From Candidatus Altiarchaeota archaeon (GTDB taxonomy: Archaea > Altiarchaeota > Altiarchaeia > IMC4 > QMZM01), in the NCBI GenBank assembly GCA_018897475.1, contig JAHIKS010000142.1:1-33020 (forward strand): a stretch of DNA of 33,020 bases, read 5' to 3'. The notes under the pieces are model-generated. The model saw only the letters and a program-made list of their open reading frames with translations. It was not told the DNA's origin and ran no database searches. Of the stretch, positions 13,605 through 29,695 are shown in pieces. Position numbers and translations under genes: made by a program. Position 1 is the first letter of the stretch; each line of letters begins with the position of its first letter.

Positions 13605-13843
13605 GCGTGTCAAATATTTTTTATAAAAGAAAAATTCACTACGAGAATCCTACATTTATCTAAATCCTTGCATAAATTAACTATTTCTGACTTAGGGGAT
13701 ATTCCCGACCTGAACGAGATCAAGGAGAAGGCAATACGCGGGAGGGAGATTCTCTACGAGAGAATTTAACCGATAAATTTTGTAATCGCTATAATATATA
13801 ATTGATTCTCACATTATCTAATAAACAGAAAAAAGGATTAAAA

Positions 13844-15970
13844 ATGTCAGCGAAATGGGCTTTATTGGCGGTTTTCTTGATATTAGTCTCAACAACCCCA
13901 GTGGCTGAGGAAGAGCAGGGAATCATACTGGAATGGGAGCGTCAGTTTCCCTCCAGAATTACAGCCATCATAGCGGATGACTGGGACAACGACAGCTCGA
14001 CCGAGATTATTGTAGCTGCTTCAAGGAGCATCTATATCCTGGATTCTGAAGGGGAGCTGGAGAAGGAATATACTATCGATTCGGACGGAGAAATCTATGC
14101 GCTGGCTGTCGGAAGCATAGACAACAGGACTGGGAATGAAATTCTAGCCGGCACTGGATTTACGTTGAGGGAGCGCTCCAACGATACATGGTTTGAATTC
14201 ACAGGGACAGAAGCAACTGAAAAGACGGAGTACCTCTATGAAACGATAAGGAATAAGGGGGAACTGTACGTCATAAGTGACGATGAGATTAGTGAGCTGA
14301 AGGACATGGGTGAGTGGATAAGAACAATCCATATCTCAAATCTGGACAACAACGGAACGGATGAGATAATAGTCGGAACCGGAGGGGCCAATACCGACTG
14401 GATGATGGAATATGGTGATTGGATTGAAACAATCTGCAGTTACAAAGACCGCCCCGGTTTTGATACCCTCATCTATAACTGCAGTGATATACTTCATAAT
14501 GCAAGCTGGCATCGTGTTTCCTATGAGATGAACAACGGCTCCGTTTACGTTTTGATAGAAAACGGGAGCGTTCTTGGGAACTACGTCTTTGATGATGTGG
14601 TGTGGGGTTTAAGCACATCCGACCTCTTTCATGACCAGGACGAGGAAATAGTGGTTGGCTCAGGCGATAATGTATATGCACTGGACAAAGACCTGGGACT
14701 CCTCTGGAGTTACCCTCGTGATGGCACCGTCAAAAAGATAGAGATATCTGACATCGACAGGAACGGAAATGAAGAGATTATTGCCGAATTCAGGGCAACA
14801 AACGTTAATGGAATAGCAGTCATCGAGAGAGAAGGCGAGGACATCTGGGAGTACAGGCTCAAGGGTGACGTAGTCCGGGACTTCTCCATCAGGAACATTG
14901 ACCTGGACGAGGAGGAGGAGGTGCTGGTTGCCTCATCCAATAGCGTATATGTCGTGGATAAAGACGGTAGACTCAAGAGGGAATTCTGGATATTCGAGGG
15001 CATTGACAACATTCTATCCACGGATATGGACAACAACGGCTATCAGGAGATTATACTCACGTCGGAGGACACCGTTTATAGCTATGAGATATCGGAGAGA
15101 CTCATAATAGGGCATAATGCCACCATCCATTACTCGCTTGCAGAAAAAAACTATGGCCTGGAGAATTACCAGAAGGCAATGGAATTTACTGAGATAGCAA
15201 AGGGGCTATATTCTGAAATCAATGACCCTACAGGGATATCAAAGTGCGATTCATTGCTTGAGAAAATACAGGAAGGCATAAACAGAAACAAGGAGATAGA
15301 AGCGCGGTCCCTCTACAACCAGGCAATGATGAAGTATCTTATGAATGACTATCTCAACGCAAAAGTGCTCGCAGAAAGAGCCAGATGGCTCTACGTCGAG
15401 ATTAACCATCCCGAGGGAATCGAAACGTGCAGCTCCCTGATAGACGACATAAACCGGGAGGGGCATCTGGAGAACGTCACCGTGGAGAATATAACCTCAA
15501 CCACGAGTACAATCACTAACATTACGACCATCTCCCCAACCACACTCCTTGTGACGATTGTACCCATCGATGAGGATGAAACACCGAATCCAATCACGGA
15601 TTTCTTTATGAAAAACCAGAAAAGAGCACCCTACGCTATAGGAGTAGGTGTCGTCATGCTCATAACATTCCTCATCATCAGGAACAGGTACTTCAAAAAG
15701 AAGGAGGAGATGAAGGCCCGTATCGGAGAGGGAAAGCCAATTGAAGAGAAAGCAAAACCTGAAGAGAAACCCGCCGAAGAGAAGCCAGCCGAGGAAGCGA
15801 AACCTGAGCCAGAGAAGAAAGAGGAACCAAAGCCAGCCGAGCAGGAGAAGCCAGAAGCAGAGGAAGAGCCGGCCGAAGGGGAGGAGCTGGAGCTGCCCGA
15901 AACGCCGGAGCTGGCCAAGGAGCTTGACGAGATAGACAAGGAATTCCAGGAGAAATACGGGAAGGAATAA
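13844..15970 (+). CDS. secreted/membrane-anchored 7-blade FG-GAP-like beta-propeller protein with helical TPR-like repeats, a C-terminal TM helix and a Pro/Glu/Lys-repeat cytoplasmic tail
   Basis: Signal-like N-terminus MSAKWALLAVFLILVSTTPVA. Seven D-x-D/N-x-D/N-G-x-x-E-I-I/V-V repeats. Two repeats of the ...Y.EINDP.GI..C..L type. Thr/Ser linker, TM helix APYAIGVGVVMLITFLII, then a [14 protein letters not shown]... tail. Many N-x-S/T sequons. The start is trimmed from the TTG at 13802 to the ATG at 13844. Confidence 0.7.
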   Translation: MSAKWALLAVFLILVSTTPVAEEEQGIILEWERQFPSRITAIIADDWDNDSSTEIIVAASRSIYILDSEGELEKEYTIDSDGEIYALAVGSIDNRTGNEILAGTGFTLRERSNDTWFEFTGTEATEKTEYLYETIRNKGELYVISDDEISELKDMGEWIRTIHISNLDNNGTDEIIVGTGGANTDWMMEYGDWIETICSYKDRPGFDTLIYNCSDILHNASWHRVSYEMNNGSVYVLIENGSVLGNYVFDDVVWGLSTSDLFHDQDEEIVVGSGDNVYALDKDLGLLWSYPRDGTVKKIEISDIDRNGNEEIIAEFRATNVNGIAVIEREGEDIWEYRLKGDVVRDFSIRNIDLDEEEEVLVASSNSVYVVDKDGRLKREFWIFEGIDNILSTDMDNNGYQEIILTSEDTVYSYEISERLIIGHNATIHYSLAEKNYGLENYQKAMEFTEIAKGLYSEINDPTGISKCDSLLEKIQEGINRNKEIEARSLYNQAMMKYLMNDYLNAKVLAERARWLYVEINHPEGIETCSSLIDDINREGHLENVTVENITSTTSTITNITTISPTTLLVTIVPIDEDETPNPITDFFMKNQKRAPYAIGVGVVMLITFLIIRNRYFKKKEEMKARIGEGKPIEEKAKPEEKPAEEKPAEEAKPEPEKKEEPKPAEQEKPEAEEEPAEGEELELPETPELAKELDEIDKEFQEKYGKE

Positions 15971-18692: not shown

Positions 18693-20039
18693 TCACAATA
18701 GTGAACTACCTCTGCATAAATTCGAGTCGAGGTTTCTGGACTCATCCCATTTATAGGAAATCATCTCCAGTTCGTGGGCTAGTTCATCTGTAGCCCCCGC
18801 CAGGTTTTGCTTCAATGCCTTGTGAAGCTCACTGGACTTATTCTCCAGTTGGGCTCTGCCCCGCAAGAGAATGTTTATCGATGCATTAAAGTCGGCATCG
18901 TATTGCATGCCACACTTCTTGCAAACGATTCTGCTTTTTGTCCTCCGAACCTTTCCGTTGCACTTGTGACACCTTGAGGAAGTCCACCATTCATTCAGCT
19001 TTCCTGCTGGAATGCCTTGCTTCTTGCACTGGTGGACTATCCAGTTTGCTGTCCGTGAGAAAGACCAGTTTCTGAGAATCCTTCTACCTACTCTATCTCC
19101 ATTACCTTTATAGTGATTGTACGCTATATATTCTGGATTTCCTACTACAACTAAAGAGTTGTGGCAAGTTGCAGCGAACTCTTTACTCATCTTTCTGTCA
19201 TGGTCTTCCGCTACATTCATCCGCTTATCCCTTAGCTTCTTCAGGACTTCCCATTGCTCTTTTCTTCTCAGATGGCTCACTCTGTCATTCAGCTTCTTCA
19301 GTTCAGATTTCTTCTCAGCCCTCCTGACTATCTGGAAGTTGGTTGAAGTGAGTGGCAACCTCACCGAGGTTATATCCCTCCTCACTCCAAGGTCAACCCC
19401 TTGAATAGTTTGAATAGGCTGAGTAGGAACTTCATATTTAACTGAGATGTGAGCATAATATTTCCTGCCTTTTTTGACAAGCTCAAAGTCTCTTATCTTG
19501 CCAGATTCAAGCTGTTGGATGTGATACTTAGACGGATTAAGGAGTAAAGCCATTAGTTCATGCTTTTTTAGAGTGGAAATTTCTATGAGCCACTTGGTCA
19601 ACTTTAGATCTACTTCTCTGATCTTTCCAGTTCTATAATCCAGTCTGATAGGTATTTTCTTGAGCTTGCTTCTCTTGCCGGTGTATGGCCTGGAGGGTTC
19701 TCTCTTCAGTAGTTTGTTATACTTATTCGTTCCTTTTTTGGCTTTACTTAGCTTCCTCTTCCATACCTTATGTGCTTCCCTATACTGCCGGTACATCCAC
19801 AGAACCTTGTCCTCAGCCTGCTGGATAAAACCAGAAGATAGGTTTACTTCAGCACTAATCTCTGGAGTGTATGCACGAACATCCTGTCTGGTCTTTGGAA
19901 CATCCTCTCTTTCATCTATCTTCTCGCAGAAGAGTCTTACTGCATAAGTATGCCTCGCCGTAAGCTTATCCAGTTTTCGGTACTTCCTTTCAGTTAACCC
20001 AAAATGCAGAGGTACTTTAACAGTTTTTATTGCTCTCAT
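18693..20039 (-). CDS. divergent TnpB-like protein (OrfB family with zinc ribbon)
   Basis: 448 aa with GVDLGVRRD (RuvC-I), ..NEWWTSSRCHKCNGKV...CKKCGMQYDADFNASINI (zinc ribbon plus RuvC-III). The usual (I/V)xxEDL RuvC-II motif is replaced by VVVGNPEYI...HYKGNG. The N-terminus is RAIKTVKVPLHF rather than the Y/FRLYP type. Confidence 0.8.
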   Translation of the reverse strand: MRAIKTVKVPLHFGLTERKYRKLDKLTARHTYAVRLFCEKIDEREDVPKTRQDVRAYTPEISAEVNLSSGFIQQAEDKVLWMYRQYREAHKVWKRKLSKAKKGTNKYNKLLKREPSRPYTGKRSKLKKIPIRLDYRTGKIREVDLKLTKWLIEISTLKKHELMALLLNPSKYHIQQLESGKIRDFELVKKGRKYYAHISVKYEVPTQPIQTIQGVDLGVRRDITSVRLPLTSTNFQIVRRAEKKSELKKLNDRVSHLRRKEQWEVLKKLRDKRMNVAEDHDRKMSKEFAATCHNSLVVVGNPEYIAYNHYKGNGDRVGRRILRNWSFSRTANWIVHQCKKQGIPAGKLNEWWTSSRCHKCNGKVRRTKSRIVCKKCGMQYDADFNASINILLRGRAQLENKSSELHKALKQNLAGATDELAHELEMISYKWDESRNLDSNLCRGSSLL

Positions 20040-20174
20040 TTCAGAATAAATATTACGACAGGGAACAGTTATACAAACTTGGTGTATATTTTGTTTATTT
20101 TTCTGATTCGCTACTTGCAGATTTTGTTGTAACCGCTAATATATGATTTCTTCTCTATATCATAACTGCTGAAG

Positions 20175-21101
20175 ATGGTAGAAATTCAAAAGGGAGAAAA
20201 GTCATGGCCGAGTCGGTTATGGTCAAAATTTTGGATTAAGATAAAGAAGGCATGGGTAGATATTGTAGTACCCTTGCGTAAACATCCTTGGATTTGGGCA
20301 GTTTTTTCAATAGTGCTTTTCCTACTTGCTATCTATGTTGCCCATGACATTATGGGGGTGGGGTCAATATCCAATCAAGAATTACAGTTAGTATACAAAG
20401 GGTATAGCGACCAAAGAGTCGGAGACAGTTATCTAATATACCTTCCTAGCGTACGTGATGAGATAAGAGAAAAAGATAGTGTTTTTGAGGTATCACCCAA
20501 AGAATTTGAAGAGCATCTTAGAGGTAACACACTTAATATGACAGTTCCTAGCTCAATTTTTTGTGAACCTGAAGGTAAAATGTTTGAAGAAAATAAACAA
20601 ATTATTTGTGATTTTACAGCATTGAAGGATGTTTTTAAAAAATTTGAAGCGAAGATATATCGTCCAGTAGAGGAGCAAGAGGGAGAGCAAGGTGAGATAC
20701 CAATAACGTGGACTATGGTCTCATATAGAACTGTATCGTTTTGTGAATATACTGCAGGTTATGAACCTGATTGTAGTGAACTACCCAACAGGACATATAG
20801 TGAAGATGACTGGTTCTATGCCCAACAGAAATTTAATATTCAAAAATCAGGTAGACAAACACTGAATGTTATATTTGGCTGGAAGCTTTCGAGTTATTAT
20901 GGAGGAGATGAAGTAGATGAATGGAGATATGCCACTTACCCAATTGTTTATTATACTCAAAATATCCGTGTCTATTCTCTAGATGATATTCGCCAACAAG
21001 AGAGGGAAAGAAATTACCAAATTATAATTGCATTATTTGGTCTTTTTGCAATATTCCCTGCGGTTAAAGCTCTTCGTGATTTAGTCGAAAATAATAAATA
21101 A
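20175..21101 (+). CDS. hypothetical membrane protein (N- and C-terminal TM helices), markedly AT-rich
   Basis: 308 aa with TM segments WIWAVFSIVLFLLAIYVA and IIIALFGLFAIFPAV. I recognise no family. Hand counts of individual 60-nt lines give about 22-38% GC, against about 50% in flanking gatE. Confidence 0.5.
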   Translation: MVEIQKGEKSWPSRLWSKFWIKIKKAWVDIVVPLRKHPWIWAVFSIVLFLLAIYVAHDIMGVGSISNQELQLVYKGYSDQRVGDSYLIYLPSVRDEIREKDSVFEVSPKEFEEHLRGNTLNMTVPSSIFCEPEGKMFEENKQIICDFTALKDVFKKFEAKIYRPVEEQEGEQGEIPITWTMVSYRTVSFCEYTAGYEPDCSELPNRTYSEDDWFYAQQKFNIQKSGRQTLNVIFGWKLSSYYGGDEVDEWRYATYPIVYYTQNIRVYSLDDIRQQERERNYQIIIALFGLFAIFPAVKALRDLVENNK

Positions 21102-23047: not shown

Positions 23048-23860
23048 ATGGAGCTAAAGGTAGTAATTTCGGATCCCGAGACGGGGAAGGCCTATCAGCA
23101 GGAGCTGAAGGATGATAGGGCCATCAGGTTCAAGGGCAAGAAGCTGGGCGATGAGATTAGCGGCTCGGTTCTCGGCCTGGAAGGCTACACCCTTAAAATA
23201 ACTGGAGGCAGCGATAGATGCGGCTTTCCCATAAAGCCGGGAGTCCATGGAACCGCAAGGCCGAAGATTCTCATGACCGGAGGGATAGGATACCATCCCA
23301 AGAGAAAGGTTCGCAGCAAGAAGAGAGTAAGGGGGGAGAGTATAGATGATGACATAACTCAGGTTAATACGACGGTAGTCAAGAAGGGTAGGAAGGGGCT
23401 AGAGGAGCTCATTGGCGCTGGAGAGGGGAAGGATGGCGAGAAGCCGCCTGAGACAGAGCCAAAGACTGAAGAAAAGCCAGCTCCGGAACCCGAGACCAAG
23501 CCAGCCGAGGAAAAGCCAGTAGAAGAACCAAAGCCCGAAGAGCCGAAGCAGGAAGAGAAACCAGCCGAGGAAGCAAAAGAAGAAGAGAAACCAGAGGAAA
23601 AGCCGGCTGAAGAACCAAAAGTAGAAGAACCCAAGCCCGAGGAGAAATCGGTTGAGGAACCTAAGCTCGAGGAGAAACCAGCTGAGGGAGCAAAGCCTGA
23701 AGAGCCAAAGCAGCAGGAGAAGAAAGAGGAGCCAAAGCCCGAAGAGAAACCAGATGAGGAAGTGAAACCAGAGGAGCCAAAACCTGAAGAGAAGCCAGCC
23801 GAGGTAGAGGAAAAACCAGCCGAAGAAGCCGAGAAACCAGCAGAAGAAAACAAGGCATAG
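23048..23860 (+). CDS. rps6e: 30S ribosomal protein S6e with a C-terminal Pro/Glu/Lys-repeat extension of about 145 aa
   Basis: The N-terminal ~125 aa (MELKVVISDPETGKAYQQEL...GFPIKPGVHG...) is S6e. From about 23426 onward the sequence is (E/K)-P-x-E-E-K-P repeats. Confidence 0.88.
   Translation: MELKVVISDPETGKAYQQELKDDRAIRFKGKKLGDEISGSVLGLEGYTLKITGGSDRCGFPIKPGVHGTARPKILMTGGIGYHPKRKVRSKKRVRGESIDDDITQVNTTVVKKGRKGLEELIGAGEGKDGEKPPETEPKTEEKPAPEPETKPAEEKPVEEPKPEEPKQEEKPAEEAKEEEKPEEKPAEEPKVEEPKPEEKSVEEPKLEEKPAEGAKPEEPKQQEKKEEPKPEEKPDEEVKPEEPKPEEKPAEVEEKPAEEAEKPAEENKA
23623..23751 (+). repeat. 129-nt repeat copy A (within the rps6e tail), about 96% identical to 29256..29384
   Basis: A hand alignment gives 5 mismatches in 129 nt with no gaps. 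A second short match follows (23787-23812 vs 29458-29482). Confidence 0.85.
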
Positions 23861-23947: not shown

Positions 23948-25174
23948 ATGACTCAGTCAGAAATCAACATCGGTCTTATAGGTCACGTAGACCACGGCAA
24001 AACAACATTAACAAAGTCCCTCTCAGGCATATGGACCGACAAGCACTCGGAGGAGATTAAGAGAGGAATCTCCATCAGACTGGGATATGCGGACTGTTCC
24101 TTCTACAAATGCCCCTCATGCAAGGGGTCGGAGAGCTACTGCACCTCCGAGAAATGCCCCAAGTGCGATGCAAAGGCCGAATTTCTCAGAAGAGTTTCTT
24201 TTGTTGACTCGCCGGGCCACGAAACCCTGATGGCCACAATGCTGTCCGGAGCAGCAATAATGGACGGCGCCCTTCTTGTCATAGCAGCAAACGAGTCGTG
24301 CCCGCAGCCGCAGACGGCAGAGCATCTCATGGCGCTTGAGATTCTGGGAGTAAAGAATATCGTAATTGCACAGAACAAAATCGACCTGGTTTCAAATGAG
24401 GAGGCGAAGGAGAATCATAATCAGATCAAGGAATTCATCAAGGGCACAGTAGCTGAGAATTCACTCATCATCCCGATTGCTGCCCATTACAATGCGAACA
24501 TCGATGCCCTGATTCAGGCAATAGAGGAGAAGATTCCAACGCCGGAGAGAGACTCCAAGAAGGACTTCAGGATGATGATTGCCCGTTCATTCGACATCAA
24601 CAAGCCAGGAGCCAAGCCCAAGGAAATAAAGGGGGGAATCATAGGCGGCTCGCTAGTCCATGGTAAACTGAAGCTGGGCGATGAGATTGAGCTTTCTCCT
24701 GGAGTGAAAAAGAAGAACGTCTACAGGTCGATTAAGACGGAGATAGTTAGCCTGAGTGCCGGAGATTCACAGCTGAAGGATGCAAATCCCGGCGGCTTAA
24801 TAGCCATAGGAACGAAACTCGACCCCTCTCTTACGAAATCAGACAATCTCTCAGGAAACGTAATCGGCAAGCCCGGAACCCTGCCCGAGGCAAGGAGCAA
24901 ACTCACTCTAAAGGTCAATCTCATGAAAAGGCTGATAGGCAGCAAGGATGAGATAAATATAGTGCCTCTGCAGAAGAACGAGGCATTGATGCTATCCGCC
25001 GGGAGTGCGGTGACGGTGGGCATAGTCACGGACCCGAAGAAGGGCAGGATGGAACTCAAACTTCCAGTATGTGCGCAGGAGAACGACCTTGTGGCCATAA
25101 GCAGGAGGTTCGGTGCAAGGTGGCGTCTCATCGGCTATGGGACAATCAAGGGAGATGAAAACACTAATTCTTGA
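23948..25174 (+). CDS. eif2g: translation initiation factor aIF2 gamma subunit
   Basis: GTPase motifs [15 protein letters not shown] and QNKID, plus the zinc knuckle CPSC...CPKC. Confidence 0.92.
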
Positions 25175-25544
25175 CACGAATTTTTTGATGATTCCCCACC
25201 AGCACAGGGTCGATATATTCCGAGAGATTGAGAGAATTATCGTCGCCAGATACGAGTTACTTGTTCCTACCGGAGTCATAGAGGAATTGCAGGGAATTCA
25301 GGGGGGGGGCAGCGCCGACGGAATAGCGGCAAAGGTTGCGCTGCAGCTTATTGATGACAGAGACAGGCACATCAGGACGATACACAGCCACGGCGACGTG
25401 GATGATTTCATCCTTGAATTTGCAGTAGACAATATGGGCTCAGTTGTATGTACCAATGACAAGGAGCTCAAGAGAAGACTGAGGAAATATAGAATCCCTG
25501 TGGTGCATCTGAGGGGCAAAAACAGGCTGGAACTCATTAACTAG
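25155..25544 (+). CDS. PIN-domain protein (Fcf1/Utp24-like, the conserved neighbour of aIF2-gamma)
   Basis: [14 protein letters not shown]...[12 protein letters not shown]. The start is trimmed to the ATG at 25155 (20-nt overlap with the aIF2-gamma end). Contains a G9 run at 25301-25309. Confidence 0.75.
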
Positions 25545-27613: not shown

Positions 27614-28219
27614 ATGTATAAACTACTCATTGTAGAGGACACGGTAAGACTCCCGCCTAAGAGATTTAACGAAGATTTGGAGGAAACACTCATGACGGAA
27701 TTCGAGAACACCATGGTGGGCAGAATAGACCGGGAGGTTGGCCTCATTCTTGCGGCAACCCGGGTTATTGAGATAGGGGATGGCAAGATAATACTTGGTG
27801 ATGGGGCCATCTACTACAACACAGTTCTTGAAATTATTGTGTACGAACCCGTATTAAACGAGGTCGTTGAAGGAACCGTAACTGAGATTACAGAATTCGG
27901 AGCCTTCGTGAATTTTGGTCCCATGGACGGCCTTGTCCATGTTTCTCAGGTGACTGAGGACTTCATGGGCTACGACCAGAAGAATTCAAACCTTGTGGGC
28001 AAAGAGTCGAAGAAGGTCCTCAAGCTGAGTGATTATGTAAGGGCCAGGATAGTTTCGGTAAGCCTGAAGCCAAGGTTCTCGGACTCCAAGATAGGCCTTA
28101 CGATGAGACAGCCATACCTCGGGAAGAAGGAGTGGCTCGAGGATGAGAAGAAGGCACAGAAGGAAAAGGAGAAAAAGAAGACAAAGCCAAAGAAAGAGAA
28201 AAAGGAGAAGAAGAAATAA
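27614..28219 (+). CDS. rpoE: DNA-directed RNA polymerase subunit E' (Rpo7) with a Lys-rich C-terminal tail
   Basis: Rpb7-like N-domain plus S1 domain (VVEGTVTEITEFGAFVNFGPMDGLVHVSQV). The tail is KKAQKEKEKKKTKPKKEKKEKKK. Confidence 0.88.
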   Translation: MYKLLIVEDTVRLPPKRFNEDLEETLMTEFENTMVGRIDREVGLILAATRVIEIGDGKIILGDGAIYYNTVLEIIVYEPVLNEVVEGTVTEITEFGAFVNFGPMDGLVHVSQVTEDFMGYDQKNSNLVGKESKKVLKLSDYVRARIVSVSLKPRFSDSKIGLTMRQPYLGKKEWLEDEKKAQKEKEKKKTKPKKEKKEKKK

Positions 28220-28405: not shown

Positions 28406-28912
28406 ATGAGGAGCAAAACCCTAAAGCTTCCCAACTCATTGAGAGAAAAGCTAAAGGAACCCTTCGGAGAACTATTGGTCGGCCTGGAGGGAGTAAGGCA
28501 TAACAAGAACATAATATGCGTCGGCGACGAAACATCAAAAATAGCGCTGGAATTCGGACTCAAACCTAAGGTTTTGGTCTATGACGGAAAGATAAAGAGG
28601 GAATCCGTTTCGATTCCAGCCATAATAAGAGACTTCAAAGCGACCGAGGTAAGGATTACGAATCCGGCAGGTTACATAACCTCCGAATCCTTTGAGGCAA
28701 TATATACCGGAGTGACGGGCTTCGGAAGGGTCAAGATACGGGTCGATGGGGAGGAGGACCTGCTGACCATTGCTGCAATAGACCTCGCACCCGCGGGCTC
28801 TGTAGTGCTCTATGGCCAGCCACACGAGGGCCTGGTCGTTGTAAAGGTCAACGAAGAAAGTAAAAAGAGAGCAAAAAAGGTACTTGAACAGATGGATATA
28901 GAAAAAAAATGA
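28406..28912 (+). CDS. DUF359/COG1909 protein (archaeal GTP-dependent dephospho-CoA kinase family)
   Basis: 168 aa with ..IICVGDETS...VLVYDGKIKRE.., in its conserved archaeal position between spt4 and rps24e. Confidence 0.7.
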   Translation: MRSKTLKLPNSLREKLKEPFGELLVGLEGVRHNKNIICVGDETSKIALEFGLKPKVLVYDGKIKRESVSIPAIIRDFKATEVRITNPAGYITSESFEAIYTGVTGFGRVKIRVDGEEDLLTIAAIDLAPAGSVVLYGQPHEGLVVVKVNEESKKRAKKVLEQMDIEKK

Positions 28913-29508
28913 ACATTGAAATTCTTGAAGAGAAGGAAAATCCCCTCCTTGGGAGGAAGGAGATTAGATTCAGGGTTGATTATAAAGGGAAGACTCCCGG
29001 TTTTGAGGAGGTAAGGAACGAACTGATAACGAAGGTAAGCGCCGACAAGAATCTTACGATAATAGACTCTGTCAATTCCGATTTTGGAAGTCAGAGTGCC
29101 TTTGCCTACGCAAAGATTTACAAGGATGAAAAGAGCATGAAGGTAGAGCCGGGATATAGGATAGGGAAGAACATCGAGGGCAAGAAGAAAAAGGAAACGA
29201 CGGCAGAGGAAAAGCCAGCCGAAGCAAAGCCAGCAGGGGGGGAGGAGAAGCCAGCAGAAGAACCCAAGCCCGAGGAGAAATCGGTTGAGGAACCTAAGCC
29301 CGGGGAGAAACCAGCCGAGGGAGCAAAGCCTGAAGAGCCGAAGCAACAGGAGAAGAAAGAGGAGCCAAAGCCCGAAGAGAAACCTGCAGAAGAACCCAAG
29401 CCCGAAGAACCCAAAGAGGAAGCAAAACCAGAACCCGGCCCGGAGAAGAAGCAGGAAGAGAAACCAGCCGAGGTAGAGGAAACCAAGGAGGAGAAGAAGG
29501 ATGGCTAA
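28909..29508 (+). CDS. rps24e: 30S ribosomal protein S24e with a C-terminal Pro/Glu/Lys-repeat extension of about 110 aa
   Basis: The N-terminal ~88 aa ([25 protein letters not shown]...) is S24e. From about 29170 onward the sequence is EEKPAE-type repeats. The end overlaps the rps27ae start. Confidence 0.88.
29256..29384 (+). repeat. 129-nt repeat copy B (within the rps24e tail), about 96% identical to 23623..23751
   Basis: Hand alignment, as described for copy A. Confidence 0.85.
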
Positions 29509-29695
29509 GAGAAACGTAAAGGAAAAGAAAAAATCCCCCAGCAGCAAGAAGTGGGAGAAGTACGATGTTTCCGGGGAGAAGGTAGAGAGGAAGAACAAGA
29601 ACTGTCCCAAGTGCGGCGACGGTGTCTTCATGGCAAGGCATCATGACAGGGACACCTGCGGCAAATGCAGCTATACTGAATTCCGGAAAAAGTGA
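29501..29695 (+). CDS. rps27ae: 30S ribosomal protein S27ae
   Basis: 64 aa with the zinc ribbon [22 protein letters not shown]. Confidence 0.88.

Follow-up and report, generated by a model that had tools for sequence, protein, structure and literature searches.

Concerted evolution by gene conversion is known in prokaryotes from duplicated genes (PMC6053082) and from polyploid Haloferax (PMC8223754), and gene conversion has also been described among duplicated ribosomal protein genes of fungi (PMC6993855). As far as those accounts go, the locus reported here resembles them in that DNA appears to be copied non-reciprocally between two loci and the two copies in one genome resemble each other more closely than orthologues do. 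The cases described there are true paralogues, homologous over the whole gene, whereas the genes concerned here, those of eS6 and eS24 and in addition that of a membrane protein, are unrelated, and the exchange would be sporadic and bidirectional and involve only short tracts of their low-complexity tails. Exchange of repeat regions is familiar among bacterial surface proteins and other repeat-bearing families, where it leads to mosaic repeats of variable length. The bacterial surface and antigenic repeat proteins are under diversifying selection, whereas the proteins considered here are essential, highly expressed proteins of the archaeal core translation machinery.

Tails on S24e are themselves known. 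A survey counted 13 low-complexity regions on archaeal S24e across 102 genera, which places it among the archaeal annotations richest in them (Ntountoumi et al. 2019, NAR, PMC6821194). The regions on ribosomal proteins were dominated by A, E and K, and 7 of the 13 archaeal S24 regions held more than 70% A+E (PMC6821194). Our S24e tail is likewise a terminal, E/K-rich low-complexity region, but with A+E at 45-46% rather than above 70% and proline near 20%, our tails belong to a compositional subtype different from the A/E-rich one that the survey emphasises. S6e is not highlighted in the survey's treatment of these proteins, nor does that treatment mention the sharing of DNA tracts between ribosomal protein genes. 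According to a review, archaeal eS6 is without a protein partner inside the small subunit and contacts eL24, and eS24 has two partners (PMC9932298); nothing suggests that S6e and S24e touch each other.

The window, by which we mean the whole 33,020-nt stretch of DNA analysed, comes from an uncultivated member of the Altiarchaeota. It is a syntenic archaeal translation/transcription neighbourhood with the gene order gatE, rps6e, eIF2-gamma, PIN protein, H+-pyrophosphatase, rpoE', spt4, DUF359/DPCK-like, rps24e and rps27ae. The rps6e gene (23048..23860, plus strand) is an ORF of 270 aa in which a full-length globular eS6 domain (Pfam PF01092, E 1.6e-37, aa 4-122, profile positions 2-124 of 125) is followed by a C-terminal tail of about 145 residues (aa 126-270; 23423..23857, plus strand). 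Downstream of it lies eIF2-gamma (23948-25174). The rps24e gene (28909..29508, plus strand) encodes 199 aa, composed of a full-length globular eS24 domain (PF01282, E 6.6e-22, aa 4-95, profile positions 1-94 of 95) and a C-terminal tail of 104 residues (aa 96-199; 29194..29505, plus strand). The two tail DNAs are 5.6 kb apart in the same orientation. The window S24e matches archaeal eS24 chains in the PDB, most of which have 96-107 aa and two of which have 120 and 128 aa, in agreement with the normal length of about 100 aa given in the preliminary description, and the exact protein recurs in three NCBI MAGs. The start of rps27ae (29501..29695, plus strand; PF01599, E 2.8e-19) overlaps the S24e stop by 8 nt (ATGGCTAA), an overlap that had already been pointed out, and a GGAGG lies upstream of this start inside the end of the S24e tail. 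This rps24e-rps27ae arrangement is unchanged in relatives, and the S24e open frame could be kept merely for translational coupling to rps27ae.

Some neighbouring genes have features of their own. A gene with a PIN_9 domain (25113-25544) overlaps the 3' end of eIF2-gamma, a position kept in all Altiarchaeota relatives examined. The Rpo7/RpoE' homologue carries a short K/E-rich low-complexity C-terminal tail (KKAQKEKEKKKTKPKKEKKEKKK; 28150-28219) that arises from a 9-nt periodic repeat. Between the primase small subunit and gatE (18693-21101) we found a TnpB/Cas12f-like gene (448 aa, minus strand, PF07282) and an adjoining 308-aa ORF that has no Pfam match. As the primase and gatE genes are directly adjacent in two relatives, L164 and L171, this region looks like a lineage-specific mobile-element insertion.

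The tails of S6e and S24e consist of K, P, E and A to 87% and 85%, respectively, with 35-38% E, 19-21% P and 8-10% alanine. Both are net acidic (-28 in S6e and -15 in S24e) and hold only 2-6 hydrophobic residues, while the globular domains are basic, and the coding strand of the tails is 74-75% purine. An AlphaFold model of S24e, computed from a 32-sequence alignment, gave pLDDT values of 85-97 for residues 1-90 and of 47-53, with no secondary structure, in the tail, which is thus predicted to be disordered. Tandem Repeats Finder (TRF) reported imperfect periods of 15, 30, 45 and 72 nt in the S6e tail and a 30-nt periodicity in the S24e tail.

The C-terminal extension of eukaryotic eS6 is basic and helical. 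The S6e described here has a eukaryote-like length (270 aa against 214-306 aa), and solved archaeal eS6 chains in the PDB have 105-151 aa. Its tail, unlike the eukaryotic extension, is acidic and rich in proline, and the related S24e tail is predicted to be disordered. Homology to the eukaryotic extension was rejected, for the PDB alignments cover only query residues ~3-135 and stop at ~120-135. The Glu-Pro/Lys-Pro region of TonB and the PEVK region of titin are spacers of proline and charged residues. The tails are similar to them in composition (P and E and K, with V or A) and would presumably also form an extended flexible spacer; the likeness is one of composition, and we claim no homology.

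We reached the closer relatives used below by taking the full-length proteins as queries and then looking up the contigs of the hits. A protein database search with the tail alone returned 3677 candidates, none of them significant, as the composition correction of HMMER removes low-complexity matches. Among the relatives tail lengths vary widely, always in frame; the S6e of L172, for example, has a 102-nt deletion relative to the window. Although the species differ by many indels, the K/P/E/A frame is never lost, and the C-terminal ~15-20 residues are conserved. On L093 and L094, two near-identical Altiarchaeota-related contigs, the S24e tails differ by one 12-aa unit (EEKPAEDKEKLK, 3 vs 2 copies), or 36 nt, which is strain-level variation in copy number. 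Across archaeal genomes and metagenomes, extra C-terminal low-complexity sequence on S24e and S6e is frequent and very variable: Altiarchaeota have it on both proteins, Thermococci-like MAGs have a K-rich form on S6e, and DPANN groups have it as well. In many ANME-2/Methanosarcinales MAGs (L124, L132, L133, L135, L047 and L059) S24e has a long tail, up to ~140 aa, built of E/A/P/T/S-rich tandem repeats that are purely acidic and differ in composition from the Altiarchaeota tails. In two Thermococci-like/Methanobacteriota MAGs (L037:9238-9981 and L045:7766-8422) a K/E/P-rich low-complexity linker fuses S6e to a helix-hairpin-helix domain at the C-terminus (Pfam HHH_5, E 1e-8 and 1.6e-6).

Within the two tails of the window lies a shared module. 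Positions 29256-29384 of the S24e tail align with 23623-23751 of the S6e tail over 129 nt with no gaps and exactly 5 mismatches, just as the preliminary description had stated. BLAST lengthens the match to 132 nt at 95.5% identity (29253-29384 vs 23620-23751), and we delimit the two copies, both on the plus strand, as 29253..29386 and 23620..23753. The two copies share their reading frame and the peptide that they encode. The ungapped score of the module is 109, whereas 2000 codon shuffles reached 22 at most and 2000 five-codon-block shuffles 32, and the best internal repeat in either tail scores only 17-21. In a gapped alignment nearly the whole S24e tail pairs with the last ~240 nt of the S6e tail. 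The second short match noted earlier is real, with 24 of 25 positions identical between 29458..29482 (plus strand) and the S6e tail, where it belongs at 23789-23813 and not two positions upstream at 23787-812. It encodes the motif EKPAEVEE, which occurs in both S6e and S24e of the relative L004, so this match is an older shared element.

Long matches between the two tails recur in other species. In L164, S6e and S24e share 87/93 nt. The S6e of L176 carries a different piece of the S24e type, identical to the S24e of L177 at 53/56 nt. L178 is a more distant member of the Altiarchaeota (eIF2-gamma 76% nt identity), and its S6e and S24e genes (L178:10001-10645 and L178:15649-16194) share a tract of their own, with 95/100 nt ungapped and 109/121 when extended, that is unrelated to the window module (scores 14-23). 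The best ungapped S6e/S24e scores within a species are 109 for the window, 80 for L178, 69 for L164, 20 for L004, 17 for L171/L166 and 10 for L005 (others 10-16), against shuffle maxima of 21-32. The matches in L164, L176, L178 and L171 all exceed these maxima. As several sister species (L004, L171/L166, L005) are without a long shared tract, the exchange seems to be sporadic. A scan of viral contigs for the module core found none.

Only three ORFs in the 33-kb window contain such a K/P/E/A segment, and the third, besides S6e and S24e, encodes a 722-aa beta-propeller/FG-GAP membrane protein (ORF 13802-15970). Its segment (15725..15892, plus strand; 89% K/P/E/A) follows the last membrane helix and precedes a conserved acidic peptide (EELELPETPELA.ELDEIDKEFQ.KYG) with which the protein ends. 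In the window this segment resembles the S6e and S24e tails in composition only, and we rejected it as a part of the high-identity module (score 19, background). The orthologous cytoplasmic tail in L171 (L171:2489-2789) matches the S24e tail of L177 at 85/89 nt, that of L164 at 50/51 and that of its own species (L166) at 49/52. The exchange thus extends beyond the two 30S proteins of which the preliminary description had spoken.

We infer that recurrent non-allelic gene conversion, together with slippage, acts among disordered tails that are selected for their composition, and that the shared module itself is probably mostly neutral. We would give this reading a probability of roughly three in four. 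The purine-rich, imperfectly periodic tail DNA (15/30/45-nt), with its many short identical stretches, would be the substrate for recombination. Slippage or unequal recombination within one tail would change its length in multiples of three, and non-allelic homologous recombination without crossover would copy tracts of ~50-135 nt from gene to gene. A crossover between these direct repeats would cost the genome eIF2-gamma, the H+-pyrophosphatase, rpoE', spt4 and the DPCK-like gene, so that only conversion products would be expected to persist. The tails may act through composition and length, as a charged, hydrated and flexible brush or spacer on the 30S surface, and a similar segment may serve as a linker in the membrane protein. 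Under such a role conversion tracts would be tolerated, and the shared module would need no special function. The free variation in sequence and length, the S6e-linker-helix-hairpin-helix fusions of L037 and L045, and the architecture of the membrane protein are consistent with the proposed brush or spacer. The preliminary description had suggested that the two tails owe their likeness to a recent duplication or to gene conversion that is still ongoing. The lineage-specific match, its recurrence and the mosaic structure described below support this origin, provided that "ongoing" is understood on the time scale of species divergence. The comparison with sister lineages that was advised there reveals a patchy distribution of the module and separate S6e/S24e tracts in L164 and L178.

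Two readings would give the exchanged sequence itself a function. It is possible, though in our judgement unlikely, that the K/P/E/A tails belong to one family of disordered, exchangeable cassettes present throughout the genome on unrelated proteins (at least two 30S proteins and the membrane protein), which conversion keeps similar for the sake of a shared function. One possibility for that function is a common surface for binding or self-association that organises ribosomes, perhaps at the membrane. If true, this would be the first case in archaea of a disordered module that evolves in concert in essential genes without homology to each other. We consider it less probable still that homogenisation is adaptive, so that the 30S proteins, and perhaps the membrane protein, need the same module for a common partner or for multivalent self-association and the tracts were fixed by selection. 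In its favour, long tracts common to S6e and S24e occur in three different species, each time with a sequence of the species' own, and a third protein of the neighbourhood shares S24e-type sequence. Moreover, in the 3' 83 nt of the module (29302..29384, plus strand) the S24e genes of four species (window, L164, L166 and L177) show 3-8 differences, an unusual degree of conservation for low-complexity sequence. Against it, the shared sequences are wholly different between species, as the scores of the window module against the L178 tails show, L004, L171/L166 and L005 do without a shared tract, tail lengths vary widely, and no partner is known. The pairing of S6e and S24e may also reflect no more than that, among genes with such tails, these two lie closest together.

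The history of the module in relatives bears on our preferred reading of recurrent conversion. The nucleotide identity of eIF2-gamma to the window is 93.1% for L164, 93.0% for L004, 91% for L173, 86% for L171/L166 (one species) and 81% for L005; L164 and L004, its closest relative, are 95.5% identical to each other, and L172, L176 and L177 are known from single genes only. Only the window species and the relative closest to it have the long S6e/S24e match; the relative L004, with a score of 20, is at background. The 3' 83-nt core is native to S24e, in which five species have it, L004 with only its first ~45 nt. In S6e it is found only in the window, L172 and L164 and is absent from L004, L173, L171 and L176. 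In L164 it sits elsewhere in the S6e tail than it does in the window, and this different position, together with the lack of the core in the S6e of L004, suggests separate S24e-to-S6e events. The 5' part (23620..23668, plus strand) is native to S6e, with the pattern EEPK[V/T]EE..PK.EEK..EEPK..EEKPAE orthologous in the S6e tails of the window, L172, L004 and L173; among S24e tails that of the window species alone contains it, and compared with all the others it is inserted there. A QQ codon pair (CARCAG) is common only to the window S24e, the window S6e and the L172 S6e. Diagnostic sites group the S6e and S24e copies by genome, with a weak signal within the 83-nt core alone, where 4 differences separate the window copies and 5-9 separate copies across genomes.

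A 3' part native to S24e and a 5' part native to S6e imply that DNA was transferred in both directions. The simplest history, which relies on a handful of metagenome-assembled sequences and on orthology that is uncertain inside low-complexity DNA, is one of two-step copying, and the 129-nt module would be the product of at least two events. An S24e-native segment would first have been copied into S6e in an ancestor shared by the window species and L172, and later an S6e tract carrying both parts would have been copied back into S24e in the window lineage. The alternative that both genes descend from one ancestral tail and that purifying selection kept the module in each, with no recent exchange, strikes us as improbable. 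EKPAEVEE and units of the KPEEKPAE type are indeed common to S6e and S24e in the window and in L004 and therefore predate the species split. Such ancestry does not account for the lack of the 83-nt core in four S6e tails, for its different position in the S6e of L164, or for the lack of the 5' part in the S24e of all other species. Nor does it fit the divergence values: the two module copies in the window genome differ by 3.9%, less than the 7% by which eIF2-gamma differs between the window species and L004 or L164.

An assembler that jumped between the tails through shared k-mers might also place at two loci a module that truly exists at one, but we hold this to be very improbable. Three NCBI MAG contigs (L001, L002 and L003) and one JGI contig (L084, the only same-species contig in a scan of JGI metagenomes) differ from the window at 8-16 positions over 5-14 kb, and therefore represent, with the window, separate assemblies of one population. 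L001 and L002 contain both module copies with the same 5 differences between them as in the window and with no polymorphism in either tail, and L003 and L084 contain the S24e copy. The population has almost no tail polymorphism: the one SNP, an A to V change in the S24e tail, is found in L084 and in the partial NCBI protein P0001. Mis-joining does occur in such DNA. L084 leaves the S24e tail at window position 29473 and closes with 60 nt (L084:5266-5325) that match the S6e tail (23545-23604) at 100% identity; the assembly wrongly joined the two tails at the contig end by way of a ~19-mer that they share (GAAGAGAAACCAGCCGAGG). P0001 breaks off within the tail, and a run of N interrupts the S24e tail of L015. 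A chimeric path would yield 100% identity, however, whereas the copies differ at 5 fixed positions, reproduced at both loci in the window, L001 and L002 and, for S24e, also in L003 and L084. Both loci keep the correct synteny on either side, and independent species have different shared tracts of their own. Collapse or chimerism in the assembly, the danger raised in the preliminary description, is therefore not what the 5 retained differences indicate. Contigs and gene calls for the S6e and S24e marker genes often end within the tails.

That both tails independently evolved the same peptide under selection for amino-acid sequence has virtually no chance of being correct and was rejected, because, although the shared biased composition and short KPEE-type units in both tails raise the background similarity, the identity reaches synonymous sites, with 37 of 41 same-amino-acid codons identical in the module where 19.9 are expected from tail codon usage (37 was reached in 0 of 200,000 simulations), and no shuffle exceeded 32 against the observed 109. 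The excess of synonymous identity and the shuffle scores together indicate that the module reflects common descent of DNA and is due neither to chance nor to convergence of the peptide.

What is new here is the exchange of tracts between the tails of unrelated genes; tails on S24e and conversion among true paralogues were known. Searches of the open-access literature brought up no earlier account of tracts exchanged between the tails of ribosomal protein genes or with a membrane protein, and none of the ribosomal protein tails of Altiarchaeota, though absence there is not proof. The earlier suggestion that a shared, recombining module on two 30S proteins had not been described thus stands for the exchange, and is to be qualified for the tails as such, since low-complexity S24e tails are documented in the survey (PMC6821194).

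Core, highly expressed translation proteins can therefore carry fast-evolving tails, predicted to be disordered, whose DNA appears to be shuffled between unrelated genes by recombination. The locus offers a natural and traceable example of how low-complexity regions spread and become homogenised in an archaeal genome. In ribosomal protein genes that serve widely as markers for phylogeny and binning, tails of this kind cause metagenome assemblies to break off or to be joined wrongly, and similar tails on two proteins must not be taken as homology of the proteins. If the tails share a function on the ribosome surface, they would bear on the heterogeneity and organisation of ribosomes in archaea.
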